DNA from: Atribacterota bacterium
Lineage (GTDB): Bacteria > Atribacterota > Phoenicimicrobiia > Phoenicimicrobiales > Phoenicimicrobiaceae
Direction of reading: 5' to 3'
Assembly (NCBI GenBank): GCA_030666935.1
Contig: DAOUWX010000001.1
Span: 1 to 43,142 of the forward strand
DNA length: 43,142 nucleotides
Positions 16,804-32,191 of this stretch are shown here, one piece after another (position 1 is the stretch's first letter; the number at the start of each line of letters is the position of its first letter). Below the pieces are notes generated by a model that had not been told where the DNA came from, did not search any database, and saw nothing but the letters and a program-made list of their open reading frames with translations. The position numbers were made by a program, and so were the translations under genes.

Positions 16804-16990
16804 AAAAATCCTTCTTTTTTAAATAAAATAAAAAAGCTCTTCAGTATTTAAACTAAAGGGCTGGTATTTTCTTGGCTCCCCCTATTGGACACGTTCAGAA
16901 CTTTTAAGGGAAATATTGCAATAGAAAATATTAGATTAATAAGTTAGTTATTCAATACTAAAGAAATATCTATAGACTAGAATTTGTACA
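16804..16990 (-). repeat. Junction element copy R1 (full length)
   Basis: Read on the minus strand: TTGTAC-aaattcta promoter-like box, then ..taacttattaatctaatattttctattgcaatatttcccttaaaagttctgaacgtgtccaatagggggagcca, a degenerate terminator hairpin, then AAAAAAGAAGGATTTTT. It aligns with R2-R5. Confidence 0.9.
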
Positions 16991-17000
16991 ATATTTTAAA

Positions 17001-17034
17001 ATAAAAAGCCCTTCAACTAAATGCCAAAGGGCTT
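17001..17034 (-). terminator. Intrinsic terminator of the GGDEF gene (same hairpin family as in the junction elements)
   Basis: Minus strand reads aagccctttggcatttagttgaagggcttTTTTATTTT: a 7-8 bp stem followed by a U-tract. Confidence 0.8.
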
Positions 17035-17158
17035 GGAATTATCAAATATCCTTATTAAGGAATACCAAGTAGATAACAGACTTTTTAATCGTAGTAATTA
17101 GCTGTCGGCTGAAAGAACAAGGTTAGGACTCTTTTGTGCAAAATCAATAAAGCATCGT

Positions 17159-18013
17159 TTAAAAAGAGTCCACTTTTCTATTAAAAACGACAACTCGGTT
17201 ACGTCCTTTTTGCTTCGCTTTATATAGAGCTTCATCGGTTTTTTCAATAAGAGATTGTCTATCAACGATTTTCTGATCTAATCCTGCAACACCGATACTA
17301 ACCGATATGCTAACTGCCTGTCTATCCTCCTGCTCATCAGCTGGTACCATAACTGATGTTTCCACTACCTGGCGCAATCGCTCCGCTAAATCTGCTGCTG
17401 TGGGTACCGAGGTATGCGGTGCAATAATTGCAATTTCTTCCCCTCCATAACGCGCAACAATATCCGTTTTTCGAACATTTTTAAGAAGTAAGTGACCCAA
17501 GCTCTTTAAAACAAGATCACCGATATAATGTCCATATGTATCATTGACGTTCTTGAAGTGATCAATGTCAAGTAGCAGCATGGAAAGTTGGAAACTATAT
17601 CTTTGAGCTCTCAAAATCTCTTCATCCAACTTCAGATTCAAATGTCTACGGTTGTAGATACCAATTAAGGGGTCAATAATGTTTTCACGCCTAAGAGCAG
17701 AGACCTGATTAAGGTCCGTAGCTGTTTGTAGAGCAAGTGAACCTACTAACAGTACAATAATTGCACTAAAAAAGAAGACCACCGGTATTATTAAATTAAA
17801 ATAGTCATTATATCTATCCCAATAAATAATGTTATAAATTACATAACCAAATAGAAATAAAAAGATAAGAATGCTTAAGAAGTTCCATTTTTGGCGAATA
17901 TTACCTACAGATAGTTGTGAAATGAGCCTCCGTATAGGGAAAAAGGAGATGCCAAGAAGAGACGCTCCCACAAATACGAGAATATTTGTGATAAAGGATA
18001 TATCGTTTTGCAT
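17159..18013 (-). CDS. Membrane-anchored diguanylate cyclase (GGDEF domain)
   Basis: 284 aa with 3-4 N-terminal TM helices. The C-terminal GGDEF domain has active site RYGGEEIAI and an I-site RKTD five residues upstream. GGAGGT Shine-Dalgarno upstream. Confidence 0.9.
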   Translation of the reverse strand: MQNDISFITNILVFVGASLLGISFFPIRRLISQLSVGNIRQKWNFLSILIFLFLFGYVIYNIIYWDRYNDYFNLIIPVVFFFSAIIVLLVGSLALQTATDLNQVSALRRENIIDPLIGIYNRRHLNLKLDEEILRAQRYSFQLSMLLLDIDHFKNVNDTYGHYIGDLVLKSLGHLLLKNVRKTDIVARYGGEEIAIIAPHTSVPTAADLAERLRQVVETSVMVPADEQEDRQAVSISVSIGVAGLDQKIVDRQSLIEKTDEALYKAKQKGRNRVVVFNRKVDSF

Positions 18014-18552
18014 ATTACCTCCATGATAGGTTAATACCTAACGGTTCATATATTTTAAAATTTTAGGAAAATAAATCACATTAGTCTCTGCAAAGTTTTT
18101 GAATGTCTCCAAATTAGTTTACATTTATCTTGTTATAATAGCATAAATAAATGGAAGCAACAATCTCGTTAAAAACGAACTGCACGTTCCTGACCACAAC
18201 AAAACTATTTTGATTCTATTTGCTGACGGTTTAATAGCAGCCCCAACACGAAATATCCTACCACCGCTTGAGACTCTTTACACATACTTTCTTTCTGGCT
18301 CACTATGTTACAATACATCTTCCATCACTTATGTGTGGTCTTGTTAATGATAATACAGATCTGCAATCACCCTAACTTCGTCGTGTTCTCCTTTTCCAAC
18401 TTTAAATCTTTCCAAATCGGTTGTACGATGCATTCCATTTTATGGTTCAAAAATGTATATGCAATGATGTCAGGAGGTTTATGTATATTAATGCTTACTA
18501 TAGTTTTCTGATTTTAATTAAGTATTTTTTGGTATATTCTACTCTTGCTATT

Positions 18553-18745
18553 AAAATCCTTCTTTTTCTGGAAAATAATTTATAAAAACAAAAAGCCCTT
18601 CAGCAAATTGCCAAAGGGCTGGAAATTGTCAGCTCCCCCTATTGGAAAGCTTTAGAACTTTTAAGGGGGAAATTGCACTTGAAAACATTAGATTAATAAG
18701 TTAATTATTCATTATTCTAGGTAATCTTTAAATAGAATTTCACAA
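18553..18745 (-). repeat. Junction element copy R2 (full length, subtype aaagcttt)
   Basis: Aligns with R1, R3 and R4. The terminator hairpin is agccctttggcaatttgctgaagggct followed by a T-run on the minus strand. The internal variable box is ggaaagctttag, as in R4. Confidence 0.9.
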
Positions 18746-18783
18746 TTTTATTGTAAAGAATTAAGGGTTCTAAAATGTTAAAC

Positions 18784-18828
18784 TTGGTGGAGGCTAGTAA
18801 ACGAGTTTCGCAACTTTTGTATGAATGG
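18784..18828 (-). repeat. Second repeat family (B): tRNA-3'-end-like fragment ending ..GCCTCCACCA on the minus strand
   Basis: acgagtttcgcaacttttgtatgaatgg matches 25796-25823 at about 24 of 28 positions. It sits immediately upstream (minus sense) of a junction element, as the other copy does. Confidence 0.6.
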
Positions 18829-18921
18829 GGAAACTGAAAAAGTATATCATAAGTTAGAAGAAGCAATTGGGATCTGTTAAGAATTAAAATATAGAGTTAC
18901 TCTTTAAGTATATTTGTTTAA

Positions 18922-19050
18922 TTAACTTGCATTTATGGTTAGAATAATTAATACCTTATAATCCTTAAGAGATAGGGCATGACCTAAATTGATCGCCGTC
19001 GTAGTTTTCCCGGTCCCGCCTTTAAAATTTAATATTGCAATTTTTCTCAT
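18922..19050 (-). pseudogene. ParA/Soj-family ATPase N-terminal remnant (42 codons)
   Basis: Below the ORF-track size cutoff. My translation is [42 protein letters not shown]. It has the deviant Walker A KGGxGKT and the usual KVLxID context, then breaks off. Confidence 0.65.
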
Positions 19051-19097
19051 AAATTCCCCCTGCTATATGCTTGTAATGTTTGTATTGTTTGTAATAC

Positions 19098-19520
19098 TTA
19101 ATATTTAAAAAATTTAATAGGAACATCTATATATATATTATCATCTACTATCCCTTCTGTTAATAATCCACCTTTTGGACTGTCTTTTTCTTCTTCTATA
19201 AAAAGACATAGAGGCTTCTCATGGCGCAGAATCGAAATAATATCACTGAATTGACTGATAGGATAATGGAGATTTATCTTATCCATCCATCCATATTTTT
19301 CTACCCAATTTGACCCATACTTTCTACACTCATTTGGAGGAATCTCTGAGTCATCCTTAAAGAATTTTATTGTTAGTGCGGTACCATCATGCTTTCGTTT
19401 TGCTCTTTTGTCATCACTATAACAACTTATTTTTATTATACAATCGCCTGGTTTTCTTTCTTTGTCATTGGCATAGTAACAAAGGCTGTAATGAGTAAAT
19501 TTTAGCTTTAAATAAGTCAT
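19098..19520 (-). CDS. Hypothetical protein (140 aa, soluble)
   Basis: Long ORF with an AAGGAGGT Shine-Dalgarno. It is the last gene of the small-protein operon. I recognise no family. Confidence 0.6.
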   Translation of the reverse strand: MTYLKLKFTHYSLCYYANDKERKPGDCIIKISCYSDDKRAKRKHDGTALTIKFFKDDSEIPPNECRKYGSNWVEKYGWMDKINLHYPISQFSDIISILRHEKPLCLFIEEEKDSPKGGLLTEGIVDDNIYIDVPIKFFKY

Positions 19521-19622
19521 TTTATAACCTCCTTTTTAATTATTTTTAATTAATATTCCAGTTTCGCTTTACTTAAAAAATACTTTTTCAGCTTTTGATA
19601 TAGGGAAAATTTCAGCAATTGT

Positions 19623-19913
19623 TTATTCTGCAAGCCTACCTACTTTCGGATCATCAGCGCTTCTAATTCTCCAGCAAAATTCAATGCGGGACCATATAAC
19701 AGTTTTTTCAGTTAGTTTCCGGAACTCTTTAAGGACTTCAGGATTGATTGCTAAATTGCCATTCCGATTTTCATATACGAATTGAGATCCGAATTTATCT
19801 TCTATCAAATACACAACTTCGTTTTGGTAAAGTTCACGCTTTTTATTTATTTGATTAAGCATCCAACGGGCTACATCAGAAGCTTTTATTAGCGAATTAT
19901 TTTTCTTTTTCAT
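19623..19913 (-). CDS. Hypothetical protein (96 aa)
   Basis: ORF overlaps the upstream DUF2158-like gene by 17 nt, which suggests translational coupling. Conserved-looking core FVYENRNGNLAINPEVLKEFRKLT. Confidence 0.55.
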   Translation of the reverse strand: MKKKNNSLIKASDVARWMLNQINKKRELYQNEVVYLIEDKFGSQFVYENRNGNLAINPEVLKEFRKLTEKTVIWSRIEFCWRIRSADDPKVGRLAE

Positions 19914-20097
19914 TTATATCAACTCTAATCAAGGAATCAGGTGAAAAATCGCCTTGTTCAAGCTTTTTTCCCGCAAACCACTGGCAAAGGACCCAATCAA
20001 AATGACGGGGATTTTTAACTGTCATAACAGGACCACCTGAAATAAGTTTGACTGTATCTCCAGTTTTAAATGCTTGATTTGATTTACTACTATCCAT
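19897..20097 (-). CDS. DUF2158/YodC-like small protein
   Basis: 66 aa. The pattern GDTVKLISGGPVMTV...CQWF...G.F matches the YodC-type small-protein family. AAGGAGGT Shine-Dalgarno upstream. Confidence 0.65.
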   Translation of the reverse strand: MDSSKSNQAFKTGDTVKLISGGPVMTVKNPRHFDWVLCQWFAGKKLEQGDFSPDSLIRVDINEKEK

Positions 20098-20118
20098 AAT
20101 TAAACCTCCTTAGTTTTA

Positions 20119-20304
20119 TTATTTGTTAAAATGCAACCCGAAAGCTTCATAAAGCATATCGATAAATCTTCTTCCTTCCGTCTCTATTCCTTTTTCTGCC
20201 CAAAACATTCTCTCTTCTAAGTCTTTTCTCCATAGCTTATAAATTCTGATTCCAATTACTGTAAGATAAATACAGATGATAATAACATAAATTGTATTAG
20301 CCAC
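20119..20304 (-). CDS. Small membrane protein (61 aa, 1 TM)
   Basis: GTG start after AAAGGGG. N-terminal TM helix ANTIYVIIICIYLTVIGI, then a charged tail. Confidence 0.5.
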   Translation of the reverse strand: MANTIYVIIICIYLTVIGIRIYKLWRKDLEERMFWAEKGIETEGRRFIDMLYEAFGLHFNK

Positions 20305-20341
20305 AATTAACCCCTTTTTTCATTTCTACCCCCTGTTAATT

Positions 20342-20539
20342 CTACTTTAATTTTGTCCACCCTGTACCTCTAAACCATATTTCACCCGTACCTGTTATTC
20401 TGTGTATTCTAAACGGTGTCTTACCACCAAGATAATCAGGCATATACCTATAAGGTGTTGGCCAAACATAGATCGCAAACAAGATCACTAATACGATTAG
20501 AATTAGTTTTATAATATTGTTTATTTCAAGTGCTTTCAT
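20342..20539 (-). CDS. Small membrane protein (65 aa, 1 TM; MKALE N-terminus)
   Basis: G-run Shine-Dalgarno (AGGGGGG). N-terminus MKALE..., paralogous to the 109-aa protein. One TM helix plus a Gly/Trp-rich tail. Confidence 0.55.
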   Translation of the reverse strand: MKALEINNIIKLILIVLVILFAIYVWPTPYRYMPDYLGGKTPFRIHRITGTGEIWFRGTGWTKLK

Positions 20540-20556
20540 TGTCTTTTTAAACCCCC

Positions 20557-20760
20557 CTAATTCTTTATCTTTGTCTTTTTATCCTCAAATAGTTTATATT
20601 CAAAAAAACAAACTATAATTAAAAAAAGAACCCACACAAACCAAGTTTTCCACCAATTAAAAGGATTAGAAGGCGATGTCTCATGCGCAATATATAAAGT
20701 AACAAAGAAACTAATAACCGGAACAAAGATTGCTAAAATTATCTTTTGGTTTTTATTCAT
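20557..20760 (-). CDS. Small membrane protein (67 aa, 2 TM)
   Basis: AAAGGGGAGGT Shine-Dalgarno. Two hydrophobic helices. Confidence 0.55.
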   Translation of the reverse strand: MNKNQKIILAIFVPVISFFVTLYIAHETSPSNPFNWWKTWFVWVLFLIIVCFFEYKLFEDKKTKIKN

Positions 20761-20835
20761 TTTAAACCTCCCCTTTTTCCTCCTTTTGTAATACTTTAAG
20801 TCGATTTTTAGCTTCCTGCATTTTTATTTCCTCTT

Positions 20836-21036
20836 CTAATTTTTTTCTTTTAATAGATAAACCAGTACTACCGGAATATATGCCATTAATAAAAAAATAT
20901 TTAACAAGGCCAAGGCTATAAAAGCTAAATAATAAATTACCTCTATTCCGTAATCAGCACTCGTAATTAAAATAAATGAAAGCAATAATAAACCAACATT
21001 TCCTATCATTAATAACAAAAAATGTATAATATTCAT
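20836..21036 (-). CDS. Small membrane protein (66 aa, 2 TM)
   Basis: AAAGGGGGG Shine-Dalgarno. Two hydrophobic helices. Confidence 0.55.
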   Translation of the reverse strand: MNIIHFLLLMIGNVGLLLLSFILITSADYGIEVIYYLAFIALALLNIFLLMAYIPVVLVYLLKEKN

Positions 21037-21085
21037 TTTTAAGCCCCCCTTTATTATTTTATAACCAAATCATTCATTTATAGTT

Positions 21086-21415
21086 CTAAGGTAAACTGCC
21101 AATCACTTTATTATTCTTGTTCCCAACTAATATTTCTCCATTATCGTTTTTACTAACTCTCATCTCAGCAACAAGAGTGCCGTCTTTGTTGTAAATTTGA
21201 ACTACTCCGTTGTAAATTTGAACTACTCCATTGTCTTCATCATTAGTCAATAACTTAACAACCTCTTGCCCCACATCATTCACAATTGCTATACGCCTCG
21301 CCCTGATCTCCTCCTGAATAGCCACCCGGCTTTCAACATTTCCATCTACCAAGAACACATAAAACACCAATATTGCTAATACCGTATAAAGAAAAATTCT
21401 TTCAAGTGCTTTCAT
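21086..21415 (-). CDS. Membrane-anchored protein (109 aa) with beta-rich ectodomain; contains a 7-aa tandem duplication
   Basis: AAAGGGGG Shine-Dalgarno. N-terminal TM helix (MKALERIFLYTVLAILVFYVFLV). NGVVQIY is repeated twice, encoded by a perfect 21-bp tandem repeat at 21188-21229. Confidence 0.6.
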   Translation of the reverse strand: MKALERIFLYTVLAILVFYVFLVDGNVESRVAIQEEIRARRIAIVNDVGQEVVKLLTNDEDNGVVQIYNGVVQIYNKDGTLVAEMRVSKNDNGEILVGNKNNKVIGSLP

Positions 21416-21557
21416 TTTTTTTGCCCCCTTTATTAATTAAATAACTCCTTCAGAATACTCTTAAATACCTAAAATTTTTGCCCGTGGTGCGATTCTTTAT
21501 CTTTTTACTGATACCCCCCCCAACCACTTTTATTATTTCAAAATATAATACTCTATC

Positions 21558-21737
21558 TTATTTGTATCTCCTTTTTCCTTCATAAAAAAACACATATATT
21601 ACTATTATGGTCCCAACGACAACAGGACACTGTAATTCCGGATTAGCTCGTTCGATTCCCATCAATATGGCTCCGACTATACCCACACAAATTAAAGCTA
21701 AAATAAACCTTTTTAAAAACCACCAAACTATATTCAT
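21558..21737 (-). CDS. Small membrane protein (59 aa, 2 TM)
   Basis: Favoured start is MNIVWWFLKRF at 21737 after GAAGGGAG. The ORF-track start at 21788 abuts the riboswitch remnant. Confidence 0.55.
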   Translation of the reverse strand: MNIVWWFLKRFILALICVGIVGAILMGIERANPELQCPVVVGTIIVIYVFFYEGKRRYK

Positions 21738-21816
21738 TTTTAAGCTCCCTTCTATATAGACCTCTTGATATTTTTTTACGGTTTGCATTTTTTACAGGGT
21801 CTCCTACCAGAAGCAA

Positions 21817-21975
21817 TTGCCCCGTCGGTGCTTTTTTGTATAAAGCTCTCCAGAGTTCTGTCCGGTAACAGTCCTTTTGCCTGAAAGTTTGGATACTTTT
21901 GGTATCTTGCCTCTTCGGCTCTTTTTCTTTTGTGATGGAAAGAAAAGGTCTATCCTGTTGCCTTCATCCGGGTTA
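21817..21975 (-). promoter_or_regulatory. Glycine riboswitch, copy 1 (aptamer 1 plus truncated aptamer 2; decayed)
   Basis: About 90% identical to copy 2 over roughly 160 nt. Minus strand reads ..caacaGGATAGacc..gaGCCGAAGAGGCAAgatacc..aaaCTTTCAGGCAAAAGGACtgtt..aaCTCTGGAGAGc..GCACCGACGGGGCAA. The conserved GGAGAG is GGATAG here, and homology stops right after GGGGCAA. No P1 3' strand (CAGAG) and no terminator follow. Confidence 0.7.
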
Positions 21976-22216
21976 TAATATTTTATTTTAAGTTAAGTAA
22001 TCATTTAAGATTGATAGTTGGATGGTTAGTATAGTTATAAGAATGTTACTTAGTGGGTCTCTTGGGATAGAGAAAAGGTGCTACTCTTAAGATAAATCTT
22101 AGATAATATAGCTTTTTATTTTAGGATAATGATATTATAGATATTCTGCTTGGATTAAAAATAGACTTCTTCAATTTATTTTTAATAGGCTGTTTTCTTT
22201 ATACTACAGTTCTATT

Positions 22217-22399
22217 AAAAAATCCTTCTTTTTCTGTGAAAATAATTTATAAAAAACAAAAAACCCTTTAGCAAAATGCCAAAGGGCTTGGAATGTCTTG
22301 GCTCCCCCTATTGGACACGTTCAGAACTTTTAAGGGAAACATTGCAACTGAAAATATTAGATTAATAAGTTAGTTACACACAATTAGAATATCTTCAAG
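22217..22399 (-). repeat. Junction element copy R3 (full length, subtype gaacgtgtcc)
   Basis: Minus strand reads cTTGAAGatattctaattgtgtgTAACTAacttattaatctaatattttcagttgcaatgtttcccttaaaagttctgaacgtgtccaatagggggagccaagacattccaagccctttggcattttgctaaagggTTTTTTGTTTTTT...AAAAAGAAGGATTTTTT. Confidence 0.9.
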
Positions 22400-22449
22400 A
22401 TAAATTGATATACATCTTTAAATACTTTTAGGTCGTAATATAGCGCCAT

Positions 22450-22512: not shown

Positions 22513-25002
22513 TTAAAAAGCCCGAACAGCACGAACCCGGAATGTACTGAGCTTGAAGTGGGAGTTCTGAAGACCATAGTAAAAATAATTTTCCCATGCG
22601 AAGGTAGCACTGTACTCCGACGAACTCCAATAGCTGCCCTCATCGAAACCGCCAACACCGTGTTTATGTAGATTGACATACATCTGATTAAGCTCATCTT
22701 TCGAGGGCAAAAACCAGTCACTATAGCCCCCGTAAACCAGATCATCGCAAAACTGAGCTGCACGGTCTGTTTCAGAATGACTATTTAACCATGTCACAAT
22801 TTTAGTCGTATTACTCTGCCCGGTTCCAATCTCTGCTCCTGTTCCCCCAATTAAAGTTTCATAGCTGCCCCACTTTTTTAGCGCCTCAGTAGATACAGGG
22901 GCGGCTTCTAAATACCTCCAGCCAGAAGAGTAAATTCCTTTGTCGTAGAAGATGTATCCTCCCGCAGGTCCGATGTCGCGCAGGGAGTAGGTACCATTCT
23001 CTTTTACTATAACAATAAAACTCTGAGTATCAAAGAGCTCTCCATCAGATACTTTTACAGTAACTCCAAAACTTCCAGTTGCAGTGGGAGTCCAGGTAAT
23101 CAATCCGGTTGAAGAATTTATGCTCATTCCTGTAGGTTTGGTAGTTAGAGAATAAATTAGGGTATCTCCGTCAGAATCAGTAGCATTTAAATCATAGCTA
23201 TATGGTTCGTCTTTGGTTGCAGAAGTAACTGCGGTAGAAGTTATAACCGGGGGATGATTTACGTCTCCTACCGAAATAATTACTTGATCACTATCGGTTG
23301 CTTCCCCATCACTTACTTCACACTCAACGGTATAGTTACCTTCAGTAGATGGGGCTCTCCAGGTTACAGATGAACCTGAAGTACTTCCCTCAAATGTCCC
23401 TCCGTTTTTATTCCAGGTATAAGTAAGGGTATTCCCAACATCCTCGTCAGAGGCAGTACAGGTTATAGTGGTAGTCTCATTTATATTGATACTGGAGGGA
23501 TTAGCAGTAAGGCTAGAGATTACTGGGGCATGATTAACCTCTGCGCTAACTGTTACTGCTACAGTATCAGTCTTGGTAATATCATTTTCAGTATATCCCA
23601 CAGTAATAGTAGCACTACCAGGAGCAACTGCCGTAATCACGCCGGTATCGATTGTAGCAATTCCGATATTGCTTGAATCATAAGTGCAGGCATTAAGAGC
23701 TATATCAGCGGTAGACCCATTATCATAGTAAGCAGCAATCGAGTTGATAGATTGAGAATCTCCCACTCCTAAATTCATTGTTTCTGGAGAAACCTCAATA
23801 CTAGAGATTGAATCTTTCGGAAACTTCAGATTTTCTTCACCTCGCACTATCCAAGTCGTATCAGGGTAATAGGGATCAGTCCTTTCTTCATATGCATCAC
23901 CTGTGGTTAAGTCTCCTTCTCTCATTTTTTCGATTAAATCACATCCTTGGGACAAGCCAAAGCCCCCTGATGTTGTATCAGTAAATCCAAAGTAAGCTCC
24001 CGCACCTTTGTCTTTAAACACATTCCATAGGGCATCTGTTTTTGCACTTTGACAAGATATATTAAGAATGATTGTATTAGAAAAGTTACTTGATAAGTTG
24101 GAATTAAACCAGTTTGAACTTACTGCATAGACGGGCTCTGAAACTAAAACTCCGCTTTCTCCTTTTACCTTCATATTTTGCCAAATAGCCATGTGGTTCA
24201 AAAGCAACCAGGTATAATAACCAAGACTATTTAAATACCAAGGAACAACTTCACCAGTAGCAAGCCACTTACCTTTTGAGCCATGAGTATTTAATACAAC
24301 CATACCATTATAATCAGTAATATTCTGTAAAGAAGCCACATCAGCTTCTTTATTATCTAATGTGGCAATATTAAAACTTAAAGCAGAATCTTCAAATCTG
24401 TTAACATATTCTGATACAATATCATGACTCCATTCTTCGCCATCATTCGTGGTACCACTCCAGCTATTAAATTCTTCTGCAAAAGGAACCCAAATCAAAA
24501 CATTTCGACCGCCTGTATATACTATATCGTCTATATCTTTAGTATTTTGCGTACTGTGATTATCTAATTCTGATTTTATCTCTATAGTATTAGTAAAGCT
24601 TGTTTGAAAATTATCTGAAATGGGCAACATGTTTTCTGCTATTGTATTCCTTCCCAAGGTTGGCTCGGCATTGAGGTCCTGTAAAAGAATGAAGCTGATA
24701 AGTCCTGATGTATAGTTTATTTGCAGTAGATTTCCATCAATAACAGTGCTTTCTACACAAGTTTGCTCATTTAGATACTCACTTAAAATATTAAGGGTGC
24801 TCTCCATACCAATACCCGGACCTTCCACAATATCATTTAGTTTTTGCTCAGCTAAGTCATGAATAGGCAAAACTTCTTGAACAACTGCCTGATCAGTATC
24901 AGGTGATGCTTCGCCATTGGGCGTTACCCCCCCGCCACCGCAACCTGATAAAAACATAGCTAATAGGAAAAATATTATTACAAAAAAATATTTCCTTTTC
25001 AT
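22513..25002 (-). CDS. Surface lipoprotein: N-terminal globular region, one Big_2 domain, two cadherin/PKD-like Ig domains, C-terminal DUF1566 (Lcl C-terminal-like) domain
   Basis: Lipobox ..AMFLSGCGGGG. Big_2-like SIEVSPETMNLGVGDSQ...ATITVGY. Two repeats start NHAPVISS../NHPPVITS.. and carry DxDxD-type motifs (ASDEDVGNTLTY, ATDSDGDTLIY). The C-terminus reads GGYIFYD..WRYLEAAP..DWFLPSKDELNQMY..YWSSSE..VRAVRAF. AGGAGG Shine-Dalgarno upstream. Confidence 0.85.
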   Translation of the reverse strand: MKRKYFFVIIFFLLAMFLSGCGGGGVTPNGEASPDTDQAVVQEVLPIHDLAEQKLNDIVEGPGIGMESTLNILSEYLNEQTCVESTVIDGNLLQINYTSGLISFILLQDLNAEPTLGRNTIAENMLPISDNFQTSFTNTIEIKSELDNHSTQNTKDIDDIVYTGGRNVLIWVPFAEEFNSWSGTTNDGEEWSHDIVSEYVNRFEDSALSFNIATLDNKEADVASLQNITDYNGMVVLNTHGSKGKWLATGEVVPWYLNSLGYYTWLLLNHMAIWQNMKVKGESGVLVSEPVYAVSSNWFNSNLSSNFSNTIILNISCQSAKTDALWNVFKDKGAGAYFGFTDTTSGGFGLSQGCDLIEKMREGDLTTGDAYEERTDPYYPDTTWIVRGEENLKFPKDSISSIEVSPETMNLGVGDSQSINSIAAYYDNGSTADIALNACTYDSSNIGIATIDTGVITAVAPGSATITVGYTENDITKTDTVAVTVSAEVNHAPVISSLTANPSSININETTTITCTASDEDVGNTLTYTWNKNGGTFEGSTSGSSVTWRAPSTEGNYTVECEVSDGEATDSDQVIISVGDVNHPPVITSTAVTSATKDEPYSYDLNATDSDGDTLIYSLTTKPTGMSINSSTGLITWTPTATGSFGVTVKVSDGELFDTQSFIVIVKENGTYSLRDIGPAGGYIFYDKGIYSSGWRYLEAAPVSTEALKKWGSYETLIGGTGAEIGTGQSNTTKIVTWLNSHSETDRAAQFCDDLVYGGYSDWFLPSKDELNQMYVNLHKHGVGGFDEGSYWSSSEYSATFAWENYFYYGLQNSHFKLSTFRVRAVRAF

Positions 25003-25458: not shown

Positions 25459-25533
25459 ATTTAATTTATTAAATTTATAGAATATAAAATATTTCAGGCT
25501 ACATGTTATATTACAAATACGACATAAGGTTTT

Positions 25534-25730: not shown

Positions 25731-25740
25731 ATATATATAA

Positions 25741-25823
25741 AAAAGCCCTTCAGCAAAATGTCGAAGGGTTGATTATTGTCTTGCTCCCCAGACAGGACGA
25801 TTTTCACAACTTTTGTATAAATG
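25741..25823 (-). repeat. Family-B fragment plus terminator (R4b): degenerate tRNA-3'-end-like ..TCGTCCTGTCTGGGGAGCA followed by the junction-type hairpin
   Basis: Minus strand reads catttatacaaaagttgtgaaaatcgtcctgtctggggagcaagacaataatcaacccttcgacattttgctgaagggcTTTTTT. Its 5' part matches 18784-18828, and its GGGGAGC-spacer-hairpin part matches R6. Confidence 0.7.
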
Positions 25824-25829
25824 ATAACC

Positions 25830-26241
25830 ATAAAATTTGCCAACATTAATATACATTTTCGACACAAAAACCTAGATCTTTTTTACAGTAGATTTTAACC
25901 AAATGTATATGCTCTTACAAGGGTTTTCTCGGTATGCAAGTTTTTCTGGTATAAAGTATTACCTCTCTTAAACTACCCCCAGATTTCCATTGTAATAAGG
26001 TCTTTTTTTCTCTAAATTCCTTGTTGAAAGGGGTACTTTTTCTACTATTATATCCTGTATATTAAAGTTTCTTAAAATATCCTCAAATCTCTAAAATTTA
26101 TACCCTAAAATCAAAAATTTTCCTTTTTATATACTATATAATTTATCCTAAATTAGAATTAACCTTGAACGTATTACAGGAATTAGTTAATTTATTTACT
26201 TCGTCATTATTTAATGGTTCTCTTTTGTATTGGTAGGGCAT
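25830..26241 (-). pseudogene. Tyrosine recombinase (phage-integrase family) remnant: N-terminal part only, multiple frameshifts and stops
   Basis: AGGAG then ATG at 26241 gives MPYQYKREPLNNDEVNKLTNSCNTFK..*. The R-x-P-L-x3-E-V-x2-L-x3-C pattern is typical of the start of the catalytic domain. Shifted frames give SRLILI and RFEDILRNFNIQDIIVEKVPLSTRNLEKK. The catalytic R-H-R-Y region is absent. Confidence 0.4.
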
Positions 26242-26330
26242 AAATTTTCTCCTAAAAAGAAGCTGCCGAAGCAATCTGGGCGAAGCATCGCAAACACGCT
26301 GTTAGCTGAAATACGACAATTTTTTCAGAA

Positions 26331-26717
26331 CTAAAAAATTGGGAACGATAATCCAATCGATACCCCTATAGGCAAACCTACCGAAATACTAAACCCATTT
26401 GCCCCTATTTTCTTGGCTAAGGAATTTAAAACAAATTTAATCTTATTAATCCATTTTTCAAGTCTACAAATAATGGATGGTAACTTAACCGCCCCTGCAT
26501 TGAGAAATGAAGTTAACCGTAACATTGCTACAAATGCAGAGTCAGGTTTATCCTCTTCAATTAATCTTTTAATTTGTTCAAGTTTCTCCTCCATGAACTG
26601 GTCAATATTTTCATTGATTACTTGAGCCATATCGATGGTCATTTCTCCTGTAAATTCCCATTCTTCTAATACTGAGTAAACCTCCAAAGCAGGTTGTTCA
26701 CTGGGTCCAACTGTCAT
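26331..26717 (-). CDS. Hypothetical protein (128 aa) with acidic helical N-part and hydrophobic Gly-rich C-terminal tail
   Basis: The ATG overlaps the stop of an upstream micro-ORF (ATGA). The C-terminus is GANGFSISVGLPIGVSIGLSFPIF. Confidence 0.55.
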   Translation of the reverse strand: MTVGPSEQPALEVYSVLEEWEFTGEMTIDMAQVINENIDQFMEEKLEQIKRLIEEDKPDSAFVAMLRLTSFLNAGAVKLPSIICRLEKWINKIKFVLNSLAKKIGANGFSISVGLPIGVSIGLSFPIF

Positions 26718-26782
26718 TGGAAAACAAAAATTAGCAAAATAGTGAGAAAAACGAGAAACAAATAATCTTTTTTCAGTTTCAT
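26714..26782 (-). CDS. Candidate 22-aa hydrophobic micro-protein/leader peptide (MKLKKDYLFLVFLTILLIFVFQ)
   Basis: Below the ORF-track cutoff. A strong GAGGAGGA Shine-Dalgarno sits 7 nt upstream of the ATG at 26782. Its stop overlaps the next start (ATGA). Confidence 0.4.
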   Translation of the reverse strand: MKLKKDYLFLVFLTILLIFVFQ

Positions 26783-27228
26783 AATAATCCTCCTCGTATA
26801 ATATATTTATAATAATTAAATATTCAATATATAGAAGGGATGTCTTTATCTTAAAATTTCCTTTTGAAAATTAATCCTAAGACAGCTCTTGACATATTAC
26901 CGCATCACTTTTATTTTAATTCAGTTCATTTAAATAAATAAGTATTTCAGCTAACTTGTTTATATCTGAACATGTTCGAAATATTCTTACTTTTTTTAGT
27001 TTAGTTTTTATATAAAGAGTTGTCAATAATTATTAAAAAGACGTCAAAATGGCGTAGCTTAGTAATTTAAAATATAAGTAAAATAAGGATTTTAATTTAA
27101 GGAAAAGTATTAAATGTCGCCCTTTTATACAGAAGGCGACAAAAAATAATTATAGACCGACTAAAATAATCTAAGAGTTATAAAATAAATTTTAATAGCA
27201 TTTATATTATACTTACAATATGAAGTAA

Positions 27229-27263
27229 GAGGGAGGATGTCTTAGACACCCCCCCCTTTTTTT
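27229..27263 (+). terminator. Orphan plus-strand intrinsic terminator
   Basis: gaGGGAGGATGTCttaGACACCCCCCCC followed by TTTTTTT. This is an 11-position stem with two A.C mismatches and a 3-nt loop. No plus-strand ORF lies upstream, and it sits inside the 3' UTR region of the minus-strand 218-aa gene. Confidence 0.5.
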
Positions 27264-27368
27264 GAACTTACTTAAGGCAATCTTATGTAGTAAATAGAGA
27301 TCCTCGATAAGTTGCACGGCTGGTTTCTTTAATCATCTTTTTTAATTCGTCAATTGGCATTAATTGAG

Positions 27369-28025
27369 TTATTTATCTTTCTTTTGCATGTGAATTTTAA
27401 GCAGATCATCTACAACAGCCACATTGATGTCCGCCTCATCAGCAGCTTTCACCAAGGCTTCCACGCTGATACCTTTTTTTTCACAGAATTGACTTACAAA
27501 TTCATTGGACAGTGGGACTGGCATTTCCAGTGTATTCTGTAACCAATGAACAAGGATATATCTCTCATCTTGTTTTGACAGTTCACTAAAGGAGAATATC
27601 TTATCTAATTCTTCCATCATAAGGACACCGTGTTTTCGTAGAAACCTCTGAAGCTTCCCTTGGCATGAAATATGAATACCTTTTGACATCTCGCATATTG
27701 CAAGTATACAGGCTTTGGCAACTTTCTCTTCAAAGCCATTGTGAACCAGAAGTTGACGTATAAGTGAAGCTAGGTTATCACCTTTTCCACCCTTACCCCC
27801 TATCAATTGTGCCTCTGCAAGGCTCTGTACATCGAAAAGATTTAGGCCGGCCATGCACGAAACTATATTACGAATGATAACCTCGTCGCCACTTGTAATT
27901 TTCTGTAAAATGCAATAACAAAGTTCACTTAGTCTATCCCTCTCATCCTCCCAATTGTAAATCTCAGGGAGATCAGCTCTATGCTTTCTATAGACTTCGC
28001 TTAGAACTTCACGTAATTTTTTCAT
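27369..28025 (-). CDS. Hypothetical protein (218 aa), weak HhH-GPD/Ogg2-like resemblance
   Basis: Favoured start is MKKLREVL at 28025 after AAGGAGGG. The segment RLSELCYCILQKI resembles the ELCFCILTAN helix of archaeal Ogg2-type glycosylases, and PVPLSNEFVSQFCEKKGI sits where P-V-D-x-H-V-x-R normally does. No clear HhH GxG motif or catalytic Asp is visible. Confidence 0.55.
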   Translation of the reverse strand: MKKLREVLSEVYRKHRADLPEIYNWEDERDRLSELCYCILQKITSGDEVIIRNIVSCMAGLNLFDVQSLAEAQLIGGKGGKGDNLASLIRQLLVHNGFEEKVAKACILAICEMSKGIHISCQGKLQRFLRKHGVLMMEELDKIFSFSELSKQDERYILVHWLQNTLEMPVPLSNEFVSQFCEKKGISVEALVKAADEADINVAVVDDLLKIHMQKKDK

Positions 28026-28039
28026 TATTAGACCCTCCT

Positions 28040-28297
28040 TTATAAGTGTCGGTGTATCCACCATTTTAGCGACCGTGGTGAACGATTAGCTGCAGCAGTA
28101 GAAATAGAATTGGACCATCCGAACCTCTGATCAAGGCGTGTGCCGACTCCCCATCCAATCCGAAATGCTGTTATACCTGCCCCAATTGCTCCGAGTCCTC
28201 GAGCTGGACCCAACAATCCTGTAGGACGGTAAGGACCTATAAGTCGTGGACCAAACGGGGCACCGGTTGGAGATCTGGTAAATAGGGGTGATGTCAT
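28040..28297 (-). CDS. Gly/Pro/Arg-rich mini-protein (85 aa) with a glycine-zipper-like segment
   Basis: Favoured start is ATG at 28297 after AAAGGAGGGGG. The sequence is MTSPLFTRSPTGAPFGPRLIGPYRPTGLLGPARGLGAIGAGITAFRIGWGVG... The locus is conspicuously GC-richer than its surroundings. Confidence 0.6.
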   Translation of the reverse strand: MTSPLFTRSPTGAPFGPRLIGPYRPTGLLGPARGLGAIGAGITAFRIGWGVGTRLDQRFGWSNSISTAAANRSPRSLKWWIHRHL

Positions 28298-28879
28298 ATT
28301 ATACCCCCTCCTTTCTTTTCTTATAATAAACATATTTCTCAATTAGTATGATTTTATTATAAAATCACCTCCTCCCTATCAGCCAAAGGGATACTATTAA
28401 TAATACCATTATTTCAATTTTTTAAATCAATTTGTGTTTGATTCTCTCGCTTGATCAAGTGAAGCCATATTTTTAAACTAATTATTTTTTGAAACTTTTA
28501 ACCTTTGTTGTATATAAATAGACTAAATATTTATTCATAAAAGACTATATGGAATGATTTTTTAGGGAACATCAACTAAAATATGGTTAATGTAAAAGTA
28601 GAAACATTGAAGGGGGACTAATCTTATTATTATCTTTGATCATAAATTATAGGAATATTTTCTATAAAATAATGGTTTAAAAAAGTCTGATATAACATTT
28701 AATTAGTTACAAAAATTAAATTTATATTTAGTGGAGTATCCTCCTTGACAAAACAATAAATAACTTTTTAAGTAAATTACGTAAATCATTTCCAAAGAAC
28801 TAGGAATTATCCCTTCGAACCTTTAAAGCATAAATATTAACTTAAACTATCTTTATTTATTATATACTACATTTTTATT

Positions 28880-28990
28880 AAAAATCCTTCTTTTTCTGGA
28901 AAATAATTTACAAAATAAAAAGCCCTTCAGCTTGATTGCCAAAGGGCTGGAAATTGTCAGCTCCCCCTATTGGACACGTTCAGAACTTTT
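28880..28990 (-). repeat. Junction element copy R5 (5'-truncated in minus sense)
   Basis: It shares the AAAAAGAAGGATTTTT box, the terminator hairpin and ..gttctgaacgtgtccaatagggggagctg. Homology ends at 28990, where an unrelated sequence is fused. Confidence 0.85.
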
Positions 28991-29035
28991 TGTTGGGGTG
29001 AGATTATAGAAGAATTACAAAACACCTATAAACTA

Positions 29036-29091
29036 AAGGAGTTTATTAATCTTCATGTTAGTGTTCCAAATAACATCTAGTGTCACGTCAC
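29036..29091. repeat. Direct repeat A flanking the methyltransferase cassette
   Basis: cctataaactaaaggagtttattaatcttcatgttagtgttccaaataacatctagt aligns with 30204-30259 at about 87% identity by eye. Confidence 0.8.
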
Positions 29092-29260: not shown

Positions 29261-29283
29261 AAGAAAAGACGCCAAGAGGGCGT
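29261..29283 (-). terminator. Intrinsic terminator of the methyltransferase gene
   Basis: Minus strand reads ACGCCctcttGGCGT followed by CTTTTCTT. A related module (acgtcaaaatggcgt plus aaataaggatttta) recurs at 27031-27094. Confidence 0.55.
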
Positions 29284-29366
29284 AAACATATAATCTGAAA
29301 TACATATAAAATAAGGATTTTATTTTTTAGGAGAACAAAGAATATCATAAATATTCAATTCTTTAT

Positions 29367-30158
29367 TTATAAAGCTTTAAGTATATAATACAAGTTGCCT
29401 AATTCTCCACTTATATGAGTGTCTAAAGGGATTTGATTTAACTTTTCATCATATACTGCTTCCAATTTAAATTTTTTTGATTTGCAAATAAGATTTTTTA
29501 AATCTTCAAAAAACCAAAGTCTTAATACATGATGTTCTTCCAAAATAATATGTCTGCCTTTATCATTAATTTCCATTTTGCAAAGCTCAAAACTAATCTT
29601 CTCTTGCTTATCTTGTTTTTCAACGCCCCATATAGTTTTTATTTGAATTCCTTCTCTTTCCGTGATCCATTCTTCCTCTTCATGAGGATTTAATCTATCC
29701 CAGGCACAGGAAAGATGAATAATGTAAATTCCATTCCTCTTTATTGAATCCCCGATATTATAAAAATGGGTTATTATGTCATCATCATACAAAAGGTAGC
29801 CTACACTATTTATTGAATTGATAGCTGCATCAAACTTGGTTTTAAATCTTATTGACTTCATATCCCCTGTTATCACTTTGGCCATATTTTGTAATTTTGA
29901 CTCTATTATTCTCTTTTTTGCATAAGCTACCATTTGAGAATTATTATCATATCCTGTCATATGATATCCATATTTTGGTAAATCAACTATAAATCGCCCA
30001 GTTCCACATGCGGGCTCTAAAATATTCTTTACCTTGAAAGGAGTATGTCTCTTGAAAAGCTCGCGAAATATTGTAGTTTCCCGAGAAATATCCCATGAAA
30101 AAGCAATATCATAGTATTTTGGAAGATTATATAATTTTTCTTTCATTAATTTTATCAA
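29367..30158 (-). CDS. Class I SAM-dependent methyltransferase
   Basis: 263 aa. Motif I is ILEPACGTGRF, followed by an acidic post-I residue (GYD) and downstream motifs (AAINSINSVGYL). Confidence 0.85.
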   Translation of the reverse strand: MIKLMKEKLYNLPKYYDIAFSWDISRETTIFRELFKRHTPFKVKNILEPACGTGRFIVDLPKYGYHMTGYDNNSQMVAYAKKRIIESKLQNMAKVITGDMKSIRFKTKFDAAINSINSVGYLLYDDDIITHFYNIGDSIKRNGIYIIHLSCAWDRLNPHEEEEWITEREGIQIKTIWGVEKQDKQEKISFELCKMEINDKGRHIILEEHHVLRLWFFEDLKNLICKSKKFKLEAVYDEKLNQIPLDTHISGELGNLYYILKAL

Positions 30159-30203
30159 ACCTCATAAATCATTCTATTTTTGAAATAATTCCAATAAAAA
30201 ATC

Positions 30204-30259
30204 CCTTAAACTAAAGGAGTTAATTAATCTTCCTGTTAGAGTTCCAAATAATGTGTAGT
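30204..30259. repeat. Direct repeat B flanking the methyltransferase cassette
   Basis: ccttaaactaaaggagttaattaatcttcctgttagagttccaaataatgtgtagt is the partner of 29036-29091. Confidence 0.8.
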
Positions 30260-30397
30260 TAAATATAAGTCCTTACTTATCAATGAAATTATACCCCTGC
30301 TCTTATTCTAACTTAAAATAGTGCTTTTGTTAAAGGGGAGCAGTATATTAACCTTATTATTGACTTATTGTATATCTCAAAATTTGTAAATATTATA

Positions 30398-30868
30398 TCA
30401 GCATTTATATTCCATCTTTATAAATTCATCACTACCTATCAAAGTATCCTTTTGGTAAACATCTGTTATTTCAAATCCAGCCTTTTCATAACATTTGATT
30501 GCTCGTTTATTGAAAGAACGGACTTCTAAAGCAATCTTTTTATTGTCATACCTCTTTTTACCCTCATTTTTTAGCAGTTCCATAATGATATTGCCTAAAC
30601 CTTGCCCACATAATGATGGCTTTAATCCCAATCCAACTAAAACAAAATCCTTATTTTCTACAAATCTTATATATCCACATAAACTATTATTCTCATCAAT
30701 AAGAGCAGTAAATTCATTCTTTCTTTTCTCCTCTATTGTTATCCCCCATCTTTGTTGGTTTAGAGTATCCCAATCCGGATAATTATAAATAGAATAAATT
30801 TCTTCGTATTTCCAACAACATATTTGTCTTGCATGATCTTCAGTTAAAATTTCTAATCTTAAATCCAT
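30398..30868 (-). CDS. GNAT-family N-acetyltransferase
   Basis: 156 aa. The acetyl-CoA-binding segment is LKPSLCGQGLGNIIMELL, with a C-terminal AIKCYEKAGFE. Confidence 0.85.
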   Translation of the reverse strand: MDLRLEILTEDHARQICCWKYEEIYSIYNYPDWDTLNQQRWGITIEEKRKNEFTALIDENNSLCGYIRFVENKDFVLVGLGLKPSLCGQGLGNIIMELLKNEGKKRYDNKKIALEVRSFNKRAIKCYEKAGFEITDVYQKDTLIGSDEFIKMEYKC

Positions 30869-30904
30869 TGCTTATCGCTTGCTTTCTTTATAATATAAAT
30901 AAAA

Positions 30905-31630
30905 TCAAATTTTATTGACCCAACCTTCGAAAATGAATTTATTTAATGCCTTAAACATAATTTCAAGTGCCTTTTTCCAACTTGCGTTTAAATTATCCTT
31001 CATCTCTTCATCGGCATTATCTGTTATCACCCGAAAAGAAAAGCTTTTTATCTCATTTAGTTGTGCTGTCTTTAAGACCGCTGATGTTTCCCAATTGCAT
31101 GCTGTTGCACCTAATTTATGGTTTAACTCTTGACGAAGCTCTTTATTGTTTACATCCTTTTCCCCACTGGCAATATTACCAACCCTTATTGTAGTTCCCA
31201 TATTTTCCTTAGCCCAATTTGAAAATTCTTTTAGTACTTCTTTAGAAAAAACTTTATTAAGTACTGTACTTGTCTTTAAATCATCGGGCATTTTAGCTAA
31301 TTTATCTGTTGGACAGACATCGTATTCAAATGAATGCTTGCCGCAGATGATATCATAAAGATTTACGTCAACAGATAATGAACCGGAAGCACCAACATCA
31401 AATACAAAGTCAGGTTCAAACTTATCAATAATCAATTGTGTTGCTGAAGCGCAGTGTATTTTCCCTGGACCTGCTTTTATAGCTATTACTTCTACATCTT
31501 TTTCTCTTCTAGATGAAATTAACCTTCCTGCTAATTCAGTTTCATTATGTAATTTTAATATCTCCTTGCAACTCTGATATTCGATATCGCAAGGACATAT
31601 AATACCAATTCTAACTAATGAATTAATCAT
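30905..31630 (-). CDS. PNP_UDP_1-family nucleosidase/phosphorylase (MTA/SAH-nucleosidase-like)
   Basis: 241 aa with the pattern IGIICPCDIE..., GPGKIHCASATQLII, DVGASGS, IASGEKDV and NWETSAVL, as in Pfs/MtnN-type enzymes. Confidence 0.75.
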   Translation of the reverse strand: MINSLVRIGIICPCDIEYQSCKEILKLHNETELAGRLISSRREKDVEVIAIKAGPGKIHCASATQLIIDKFEPDFVFDVGASGSLSVDVNLYDIICGKHSFEYDVCPTDKLAKMPDDLKTSTVLNKVFSKEVLKEFSNWAKENMGTTIRVGNIASGEKDVNNKELRQELNHKLGATACNWETSAVLKTAQLNEIKSFSFRVITDNADEEMKDNLNASWKKALEIMFKALNKFIFEGWVNKI

Positions 31631-31837
31631 AAAATTACTTCACCTCAGATTTACCTTTAATAATACGAACCACGTTCTTAAATGTGTCAGGGGAACGGTT
31701 CTTTAATACACTTCAGGGAAAACATGGGGTCGGGCCTTCATATTTGTCATAATTAATTACTTAAAAGAAACTTTTTGAATTATTATAAAATAATAATCAC
31801 AAAATTGTTTATAATTAGACATTACGGTAAATTTTTC

Positions 31838-31919
31838 AAAAAACCTTCTTTTTTTGAAAGATAATTAAAAAAAACAAAAAGCCCTTCAGCAAAAAGCCAA
31901 AGGGCTGGAAATTGACAAG
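31838..31919 (-). repeat. Junction element copy R6 (terminator plus distal box only)
   Basis: Minus strand reads ..GGGGAGCttgtcaatttccagccctttggctttttgctgaagggcTTTTTGTTTTTTTT...AAAAAAAGAAGGTTTTTT. It is colinear with the 3' half of R1-R5. Confidence 0.85.
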
Positions 31920-31949
31920 CTCCCCGGGTAGGATTCGAACCTACAACCC
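31920..31949 (-). pseudogene. tRNA 3' fragment (T-arm plus 3' acceptor strand); no 5' half present
   Basis: Minus strand reads gggtt-GTAGG-TTCGAAT-CCTAC-CCGGGGA-G, a canonical T stem-loop plus a 7-nt acceptor strand and discriminator. Upstream sequence has no complementary TCCCCGG, D-arm or anticodon stem. Confidence 0.8.
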
Positions 31950-32191
31950 TCTTTTAGCAAGCCTCTATTTATTTATCAATAAATCGTTTCGTATTGCGTA
32001 TCGAGTATCGCGTGAAGAAAAAGAACTCGATAAAAAAGAAGATAGAAAAACAAAAGCAATAAATATTCTTTCCTCCTTTCTTACTACCCCACTAAAGTTT
32101 ACACTAACAATTTCCTACTTCACTAACAAATTAAAAGTAGACTCTTAAGAATAACCTAAAATTGTAATAATATAGAGTCGGAAAATAATGC

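Follow-up and report, generated by a model that had tools for sequence, protein, structure and literature searches.

The DNA described here, in the following called the window, is a stretch of 43,142 nucleotides (nt) of contig DAOUWX010000001.1 from an Atribacterota bacterium (assembly GCA_030666935.1). Between mtlD and a xylose block it carries a 15-kb region (16.8-31.9 kb) which is divided by copies of a conserved junction unit of about 140 nt. We favour the interpretation, at a probability of roughly 0.55, that this region is a tRNA-Asn-anchored additive (flexible) island of JS1-type Atribacterota, made up of co-oriented, self-contained expression cassettes that were gained by site-specific first capture and later exchange. 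Each boundary would be a copy of the unit, descended from the 3' end of tRNA-Asn and its trailer. DNA entry and the reshuffling of cassettes would occur by recombination within the part of the unit between an invariant GGGGAGC and a terminator, so that an incoming cassette would bring along its own terminator-distal half, promoter box and leader and would leave its own upstream arm (types A-F) before the next unit. The unit would at the same time insulate each cassette from its neighbour and supply its promoter. The first capture may have been performed by a site-specific recombinase at the 3' end of tRNA-Asn, supplied either in trans or by transient elements, along the lines of the Prochlorococcus tycheposon model, with homologous exchange or gene conversion between units adding later shuffling. 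The interpretation is carried by the observed anatomy of the unit, its tRNA origin, an empty site, hypervariability beside the tRNA, the recurrence of one cassette in three contexts and the location of an exchange zone. The region largely behaves as a tRNA-seeded additive island with modular cassettes, that is, as a variant of the known gene accretion beside tRNA genes.

The earlier note on this DNA, made from the letters alone, had described six copies of one element (R1-R6). Direct-repeat search, alignment and pattern search all agreed on these six, and the proposed coordinates were right within a few bases. The pattern GGGGAGC-N9-14-AGCCCTTTRG had six matches in the window, all at R1-R6 and on the minus strand, whereas 0 matches were expected from 100 shuffles. 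An nhmmer profile of the unit which had been built solely from copies of other genomes (L008-L115) recovered six full units at 16783-16909, 18530-18666, 22192-22335, 25508-25646, 28856-28994 and 31819-31937 (E values of 1e-24 to 1e-35) and two partial units at 16985-17044 and 25726-25817, all of them on the minus strand. The partial units correspond to two elements (17001-17034 and 25741-25780) that had been noted before as terminator-only relatives. The one at 16985-17044 consists of the terminator hairpin alone (17003-17034, also found by the terminator scan), the other of a type B arm, GGGGAGC and terminator (hairpin 25740-25770) without the box. The only further profile match in the 43 kb was a box-only copy (AAAAAGAAGGATTTTTAAAATAAACGTAGTATA, 10825-10864, minus strand) upstream of a flank gene outside the island. 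This copy apart, eight units (six full and two partial) cluster in the 15 kb from 16.8 to 31.9 kb versus none in the 28 kb of flanks, and the even spread of a generic dispersed repeat was not observed.

Read along the minus strand, the unit begins with a variable upstream arm, which is followed by about 26 weakly tRNA-like nt starting with AAAAGTTC, homologous to variable loop, T-arm and acceptor strand, and by the invariant GGGGAGC, with which the tRNA ends. On the 3' side of GGGGAGC there follow a spacer of 11-12 nt, the hairpin AGCCCTTTGGC...GCTGAAGGGCT with a T-run, about 20 AT-rich bases and the promoter-like box AAAAAGAAGGATTTT-N11-12-GT(A/C)G(T/A)AT (the AAAAAGAAGGATTTT..GTAGTATA box), so that the conserved terminator and promoter box carry the unit about 110 nt beyond the tRNA. 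R1 with its type A arm extends over 16783-16990 (box 16805-16819). Type A arms are likewise part of R2 (18530-18745; GGGGAGC 18632-18638, terminator 18594-18620, box 18553-18567), R3 (22192-22399; GGGGAGC 22301-22307, terminator 22261-22289, box 22219-22233) and R4 (25508-25730, with a small-RNA-like arm; GGGGAGC 25613-25619, terminator 25574-25601, box 25535-25549). R5 carries a type C arm (28856-29081; GGGGAGC 28960-28966, terminator 28921-28948, box 28881-28895), and R6 covers 31819-31937 (GGGGAGC 31919-31925, terminator 31880-31906, box 31839-31853). A degraded junction at 30197-30259 on the minus strand, between the GNAT and methyltransferase genes, is a fragment of a type C arm; it is a repeat 84% identical to 29019-29081 and was also seen by alignment. 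The constant part of R1, with its spacer CAAGAAAATACC and its box, equals the mtlD-linked version found after the intact tRNA-Asn of related locus L006. Short-read assemblies of the same strain break within R1.

The junction hairpin has a short perfect stem of 11-13 bp followed by a T-run and reads as a terminator. The hairpins of R2-R6 and of the partial unit (17006-17034) were scored as intrinsic-terminator-like on the minus strand, and across 149 copies the pairing at the top of the stem was kept despite base changes. Group II introns (RF02001, RF01998, RF00029) sit a few bases past the T-run in related loci (L013:486-1067, L030:790-1089 and L098:1697-1998, with 5' ends in L008, L021 and L038). 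Insertion just past a terminator is the known target choice of class C group II introns, and these sites provide independent evidence that the hairpin is perceived as a terminator-type structure. The box was not called by a sigma-70 scan of the window. It appears to fit the Bacillus sigma-H consensus, AGGAwWW-N11-12-RnnGAAT, and may represent a general alternative-sigma promoter in this lineage. Comparison of the unit with Rfam gave no family match, either at the gathering threshold or at E<=1, and a search for terminal inverted repeats yielded none beyond the terminator hairpin and weak AT-rich pairs.

The tRNA fragment that had been suspected at the right end of the array is real. Positions 31920-31951 (minus strand) are exactly the last 32 nt of the intact tRNA-Asn(GTT) of relatives (L006, L031, L172 and others) and comprise the variable loop, the T-arm and the 3' acceptor strand; the 5' 40 nt are missing, and ARAGORN called no tRNA in the window. 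The tRNA 3' end is true in R6 and diverged in the other units of the window. Eleven intact tRNA-Asn genes were found, distributed over three or more genomic contexts (dnaG-rpoD, a sugar ABC operon, and others with trpEGD or TRAP transporter genes downstream), and directly 3' of every one of them lies a unit. Of 140 distinct copies, which include all arm types, 120 show the motif RARRGTW at 23-26 nt before GGGGAGC, which is the exact position where true partial tRNA-Asn copies start. The variable-loop start GAGGGTTG opens the fragment both in R6 and in a family of other loci (L032, L148, L164, L169, L184 and L187), though the upstream DNA of R6 and of this family is unrelated. Other partial tRNA copies begin a few bases off (L156, L191) or in the D-arm (L056).

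In L172 a tRNA-Asn and a PNP cassette are collinear with the window at 96% identity, and the alignment starts at 31951, the base with which the fragment opens. Because the alignment begins there, we prefer to regard R6 as the original 3' end of the tRNA in a displaced position and not as a further junction copy. The 5' part was presumably split off by whatever delivered the oppositely oriented sugar block, a geometry that would be expected of a displaced attR. GC skew and gene orientation both flip sign at about 31950-32430, precisely where the tRNA-Asn is broken. To the right, the 11-kb sugar-utilisation block may have arrived as one large insertion into the tRNA; the flip may also be related to replication, but no DnaA-box cluster was found at this position. 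A chimeric tRNA-like gene was seen in L189 (2300-2425), where the 5' two thirds resemble tRNA-Thr(UGU) and are fused to the T-arm, the acceptor 3' strand and the trailer of tRNA-Asn.

Comparison with loci that carry mtlD orthologues, which bear the names Candidatus Atribacteria or Infernicultor, revealed an empty site. In L006 and L007, whose mtlD is 86% identical, an intact tRNA-Asn(GTT) is followed by a unit and then directly by mtlD, and this tRNA trailer has the same spacer variant, terminator and box as R1. Other relatives carry different genes upstream of mtlD: a methyltransferase, four unknown genes and a ParA remnant in L004; DUF4153, peptidase C69, ADI, GATase and GNAT between two units in L005; one 210-aa membrane protein in L091; and the ParA remnant alone in L089 and L102. 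Identical 15-kb content was thus not found in relatives. A metagenome scan for tRNA-Asn followed by a unit yielded 86 loci, and 90 usable loci entered a clustering of the downstream DNA. The 570 nt after the unit fell into 18 unrelated clusters among the 23 loci which share the dnaG-rpoD-tRNA-Asn flank (at least 85% identity), and into 79 clusters over all 90 loci. Conservation is close to 100% through the tRNA, persists in GGGGAGC, stem and box and ends directly after the box. The empty site, the exchanged genes and the hypervariable tRNA-Asn position support the proposal of the earlier note that independent cassettes accreted at a tRNA-linked hotspot.

Cassettes also move as units. The PNP_UDP_1+GNAT cassette with its own GAAGGTTTTTT box occurs at 95-96% nt identity in three junction contexts, namely behind the partial tRNA of the window, behind an intact tRNA-Asn (L172) and behind a type C arm (L112); in L112 no methyltransferase follows. 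In L049 two units enclose a homologue of the GGDEF protein (72% aa identity). The PNP gene of the 96%-identical cassette in L172 is split by an IS21-like element (1126-3782) with open reading frames (ORFs) for 518-aa IstA-like and 269-aa IstB-like proteins, and in L163 the gene has a deletion of about 210 nt, from which it follows that the cassette is decaying in some populations.

An exact-pattern scan of 185,579 species genomes retrieved 108 stretches, which belong to metagenome-assembled genomes (MAGs) and single-amplified genomes of Atribacterota and to short contigs binned elsewhere. The 153 copies counted comprise 56 of type A, 28 of type B, 14 of type C, 13 with tRNA, 8 of type D, 7 of type F, 6 of type E and 21 others, and 112 of the 153 have the box. 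A typical MAG holds about 5-10 strict copies, mostly on short, repeat-broken contigs and often with 3-4 within 5-8 kb (as in L031, L042, L047 and L086).

The zone of exchange was located by a pair-class comparison, in which the identity of the 93 nt after GGGGAGC was sorted by shared neighbours (18 informative pairs, a small sample). Identity was 0.98 for pairs sharing both the upstream and the downstream neighbour, 0.86 for pairs with different upstream and the same downstream neighbour, 0.76 for the reverse case and 0.73, the background, for pairs sharing neither. The constant part of the unit tracks the downstream cassette. Linkage to the upstream arm drops at GGGGAGC from 0.99 to 0.65, and linkage to the downstream side is 0.88 at and after the box, 0.81 after the terminator and at background in the hairpin loop and spacer. 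Between L159 and L196, whose flanks agree, the spacer is the sole difference; in L005 the break before mtlD lies between terminator and box. Consequently, the exchange zone is a segment of about 45 nt from GGGGAGC to the hairpin and not one nucleotide. Mutual information between arm type and spacer and Mantel tests were too crude to place the zone, and the pair-class comparison was used instead.

The upstream arms sort into families A-F. In type A arms (R1-R4) a pyrimidine tract pairs with AGGGGGAG in a predicted helix, followed by the terminator hairpin. Helix and terminator gave z-scores of -2.4 to -4.4 in three of the four type A copies, and the pyrimidine tract varies by C-to-U changes only. 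A promoter-like site, TTGAAG-N17-TAATAT, precedes these arms; it scores 8/12 and was not called by the sigma-70 scan. By these predicted structures the type A arm may be a small-RNA unit. An antisense protein-coding ORF in the type A arm was rejected, as it would start with TTG, lacks a Shine-Dalgarno site, shows a third-position excess that is only weak (0.72/0.72/1.00) and has radical substitutions at sites for which RNA pairing predicts C/U changes. An ORF from an ATG in the hairpin loop was likewise dismissed, since this ATG is not conserved. Type B arms, by comparison, contain a conserved antisense small ORF, generally of 19 aa (range 17-22 aa, consensus MSDETEKVYQKLEEVISIC). In the window it is found at 18821-18880 on the plus strand (translation MNGETEKVYHKLEEAIGIC) within a truncated type B arm (18801-18880). 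The ORF is kept in 17 other loci, where it varies mainly at the third position of codons (0.91 vs 0.48/0.30 bits), and it has no obvious Shine-Dalgarno site. According to tblastn, the combination of this arm with a 42-aa ParA remnant of the same truncation recurs in four other genomes (L004, L042, L069, L089). The type D arm is the 5' end of an antisense ParB-HTH gene. The corresponding proteins (PF17762, about 95-130 aa) are encoded antisense to type D arms in L011 (949-1230), L046, L050, L068, L106, L116 and L121, and the family has 416 homologues, almost all on short contigs; those on longer contigs head arrays with defence-like genes (PycTM, CHAT-TPR, RE_AlwI, PAPS reductase).

Several observations weigh against the island as we interpret it. 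No tyrosine-recombinase motif was detected by regular expressions in the ORFs of about 550 kb of unit-bearing GTDB loci or in 209 ORFs of at least 220 aa from the 86 tRNA-Asn loci (453 kb). Phage_integrase was not among the top Pfam families of 123 representative tRNA-proximal ORFs, and the unit had no match in IMG/VR. The window itself contains no recombinase, and none was found in the contexts of the ParB-HTH family or by Pfam on 30 neighbours. These searches cover about 190 loci and about 1 Mb, including about 100 array heads at tRNA-Asn, on short contigs, and absence is therefore not proof. The breakpoints lie at more than one nucleotide (L005) and downstream linkage decays gradually (18 pairs), so that homologous exchange fits as well as a site-specific enzyme. 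The unit occurs beyond the one hotspot that had been proposed, for lone units lie inside long contigs away from tRNA-Asn (L076, L085), and the genome-wide copy number is based on exact-pattern matches in fragmented MAGs. Finally, several arms (the small-RNA-like helix, the antisense small ORF and the ParB-HTH gene) appear from their sequences to be conserved functional modules rather than decaying scars. Involvement of IS200/IS605 elements was dropped, since one Y1 transposase was seen, in L011 only; this IS200-type transposase and the IS21 copies are incidental.

It is possible, though we consider it less probable, that no dedicated recombinase exists and that the units serve as portable homology for RecA-type recombination or gene conversion after any DNA uptake, with the tRNA-Asn trailer as the oldest copy. 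The lack of a recombinase in the loci searched and the several breakpoints within the unit agree with this, no linkage among the variable segments of the unit was seen when all copies were compared, and dprA adjoins one array (L056). With 75-93% identity the units may also be likened to the intergenic mosaic repeats between which minimal mobile elements of Neisseria reside. The exchange zone of GGGGAGC, spacer and hairpin offers just 7-15 nt runs of perfect identity, however, which is short for RecA. Strict co-orientation of the cassettes, extreme variability exactly at the tRNA-proximal position and a 5' edge of cross-type homology at the variable-loop start, the canonical tRNA att boundary, also speak against this view. 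A further reading, in which GGGGAGC, spacer and hairpin form the true recombination site of a trans-acting, hairpin-recognising recombinase (IntI-like, Y1/HUH-like or of an unknown kind), seems doubtful to us. If it were true, Atribacterota would hold a system analogous to integrons in which tRNA-Asn takes the role of attI, every cassette brings along one element that is recombination site, terminator and promoter at once, and many cassettes are placed under a glycine riboswitch.

An explanation in which the unit has no role in gene acquisition is unlikely. The unit would then be an intergenic element of regulatory or structural kind throughout the lineage, maintained by selection on its termination, promoter and RNA functions, and would mark the borders of operons. 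It could be a small-RNA family with a tRNA-Asn trailer or resemble repetitive extragenic palindromic (REP) sequences, bacterial interspersed mosaic elements or miniature inverted-repeat transposable elements (MITEs). The predicted type A helix with its one-sided C/U changes and the promoter-like site before it would fit, as would the box before one flank gene and the units flanking core-like genes such as a sigma-70 gene (L105) and ndk (L076). The units are not dispersed, however, considering their clustering in the window and the 5-10 strict copies per MAG. They match no Rfam family, and empty site, hypervariability and one cassette in three contexts would be left unexplained. The REP/MITE form of this explanation is rejected, as the copies are clustered and lack terminal inverted repeats beyond the hairpin. 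That the array grew chiefly because one riboswitch-controlled surface-protein cassette was duplicated in tandem and diverged, with the junctions as paralogous flanks, is very unlikely. R4 and R3 with their leaders are indeed paralogous through a glycine riboswitch (21812-21988 vs 25291-25467, 92% identical), and L031 has three consecutive riboswitch and Lcl_C/PEGA cassettes. Most cassettes are nevertheless unrelated (GGDEF, PNP/GNAT, methyltransferase, beta-lactamase, defence-like genes), identical ones occupy different array positions in different genomes, and coding regions already largely lack detectable shared ancestry while the junctions share it. An integron-like array had been offered by the earlier note as well. 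The co-oriented cassettes, the conserved hairpin-containing repeat between them and the lack of an integrase nearby would fit a chromosomal integron or a cluster of attC sites without an integrase (CALIN). This reading is extremely improbable and was rejected because it fails the defining features. RYYYAAC...GTTRRRY pairs (40-130 nt apart), the R''/R' boxes of attC sites, were found 0 times on either strand of the window versus a mean of 9.9 in shuffles. No IntI was found in the roughly 1 Mb searched, the hairpin is a short terminator stem with a T-run, and cassettes contain several genes with their own promoter box and, in two cases, a riboswitch leader.

The tRNA-Asn-anchored island resembles known systems in part. 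As in tRNA-targeting islands, a tRNA heads the array, partial in the window and intact in L006, L031 and L172, and the direct repeats are partial tRNA 3' ends, which are true in R6, the L032 family and L056. As in the tycheposon islands of Prochlorococcus, it lies beside one specific tRNA, full and partial tRNA copies occur between modules, variability peaks next to the tRNA, most islands lack an intact element and the cargo is of the niche or defence type. In the tycheposon study 937 putative integrase-carrying elements were reported, and most tRNA-seeded islands held no intact element (bioRxiv 10.1101/2020.12.28.424599). The missing recombinase is therefore compatible with the tycheposon model, the mechanism being one that we infer. 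In contrast to tycheposon islands, the unit is long (about 140 nt), derives from the trailer and doubles as terminator and promoter, its tRNA-derived part has diverged into discrete arm families, modules may be as small as one gene, and no integrase was found in about 190 sampled loci. With integrons and CALINs the region shares a polar cassette array, a conserved hairpin-containing repeat and cassettes that are reshuffled as units; it differs in having no attC architecture, no attI/IntI and no single Pc promoter, in the promoter-like box of each cassette, often with a riboswitch leader and several genes, and in the origin of the repeat from a tRNA trailer.

The intergenic mosaic and Correia elements of Neisseria contain terminators and promoters and flank strain-variable genes, with exchange thought to be homologous between conserved flanks. 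These repeats are high in copy number, dispersed and equipped with terminal inverted repeats, whereas the copies described here are few, clustered, polar and tRNA-derived. Accretion of integrative and conjugative elements and cis-mobilisable elements in Streptococcus produces tandem att-bounded modules which have no integrase of their own, are mobilisable in trans and have an integrase-bearing partner in the same array; such a partner was not seen here. In the literature we found no description of this element in Atribacteria.

Many subseafloor and hydrocarbon-rich sediments are dominated by Atribacterota (JS1/OP9), hardly any of which have been cultured. The locus offers a sequence-defined handle on their flexible genome and gene acquisition, as one short pattern is enough to pull variable islands out of any metagenome. 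Should a dedicated recombinase act on the unit, this would be the second system of cassette capture, independent of integrons and with terminator and promoter built in; if there is no such enzyme, the unit is still a natural design for an insulated expression cassette. Repeats of the unit also explain why these regions break in assemblies and are mis-binned into other MAGs. Unit-bearing contigs turn up by the dozen in MAGs assigned to archaea, Saccharibacteria, Actinomycetota and other groups (L010, L023, L027, L036, L053, L062, L063, L072, L078 and others in Promethearchaeota Hel_238_bin105; L040-L043 in Thermoplasmata; L057, a 143-kb contig in a 'Heimdallarchaeota' MAG). Most likely these are mis-binned Atribacterota repeat fragments, and the unit pattern could act as a contamination flag for MAGs.

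The contents of the cassettes in the window are mostly unrelated in sequence and function, and several cassettes hold 2-10 genes. Starting from the tRNA fragment, all on the minus strand, there are a PNP_UDP_1 nucleosidase (30905-31630) and GNAT (30398-30868) cassette at 30398-31630, a cassette with a class I S-adenosylmethionine-dependent methyltransferase (29367-30158, Pfam Methyltransf_25/11), a cassette of three ORFs without Pfam matches (26331-28342; 100, 231 and 128 aa) and a short ORF at 26143-26274. They are followed by the cassette of an 829-aa lipoprotein with Big_2/PKD/He_PIG/Lcl_C domains (22513-25002), which has Lcl_C paralogues in arrays of other genomes, by an operon of about ten small proteins (19098-21788; DUF2158, DUF6953, small membrane proteins and a 140-aa protein), by the 42-aa ParA/MinD Walker-A N-terminal remnant (18922-19050, Pfam AAA_31/CbiA) and by a membrane GGDEF diguanylate cyclase cassette (17159-18013). 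Pfam confirmed the GGDEF, PNP_UDP_1, GNAT, methyltransferase, Ig/PKD/Lcl_C lipoprotein and ParA assignments made beforehand, but not the supposed integrase remnant: the short ORF at 26143-26274 matched no Pfam family at E<=1 and has no homologue in related loci. Instead of five cassettes there are at least six modules, as PNP and GNAT are separable from the methyltransferase. The large ORFs between mtlD and the xylose block all lie on the minus strand, as had been stated for everything there, and the conserved small ORF at 18821-18880 is the plus-strand exception. G-run Shine-Dalgarno sequences, thought to be common among the cassettes and missing before flanking genes, do occur in the tiny-protein operon (about five genes), but within the island they are confined to it and one also precedes the flank gene at 34953.

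Two cassette leaders contain glycine riboswitches on the minus strand (Rfam RF00504, RF03166-like). Tandem aptamers precede the lipoprotein (25205-25450; 65.7 and 39.8 bits) and a single aptamer precedes the tiny-protein operon (21793-21971; 54.2 bits), all three scores exceeding the RF00504 gathering score of 32. Such leaders were also found in L031 (three), L085, L008, L112 and L056 and are among the most repeated sequences of these arrays. The cassettes behind them encode Lcl_C/Big_2/PKD lipoproteins or tiny membrane proteins and not glycine metabolism or transport, an unexpected use of glycine riboswitches on surface-protein cassettes.

A gap of 540 nt between R2 and the GGDEF start codon (18014-18552) contains neither ORFs nor Rfam matches and is either a long leader or a degraded gene. 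A 63-nt repeat at 27036-27098 and 29264-29326 (76% identical) combines a small hairpin with a box-like AAAATAAGGATTTT and lies on the plus strand, in antisense orientation to the array.

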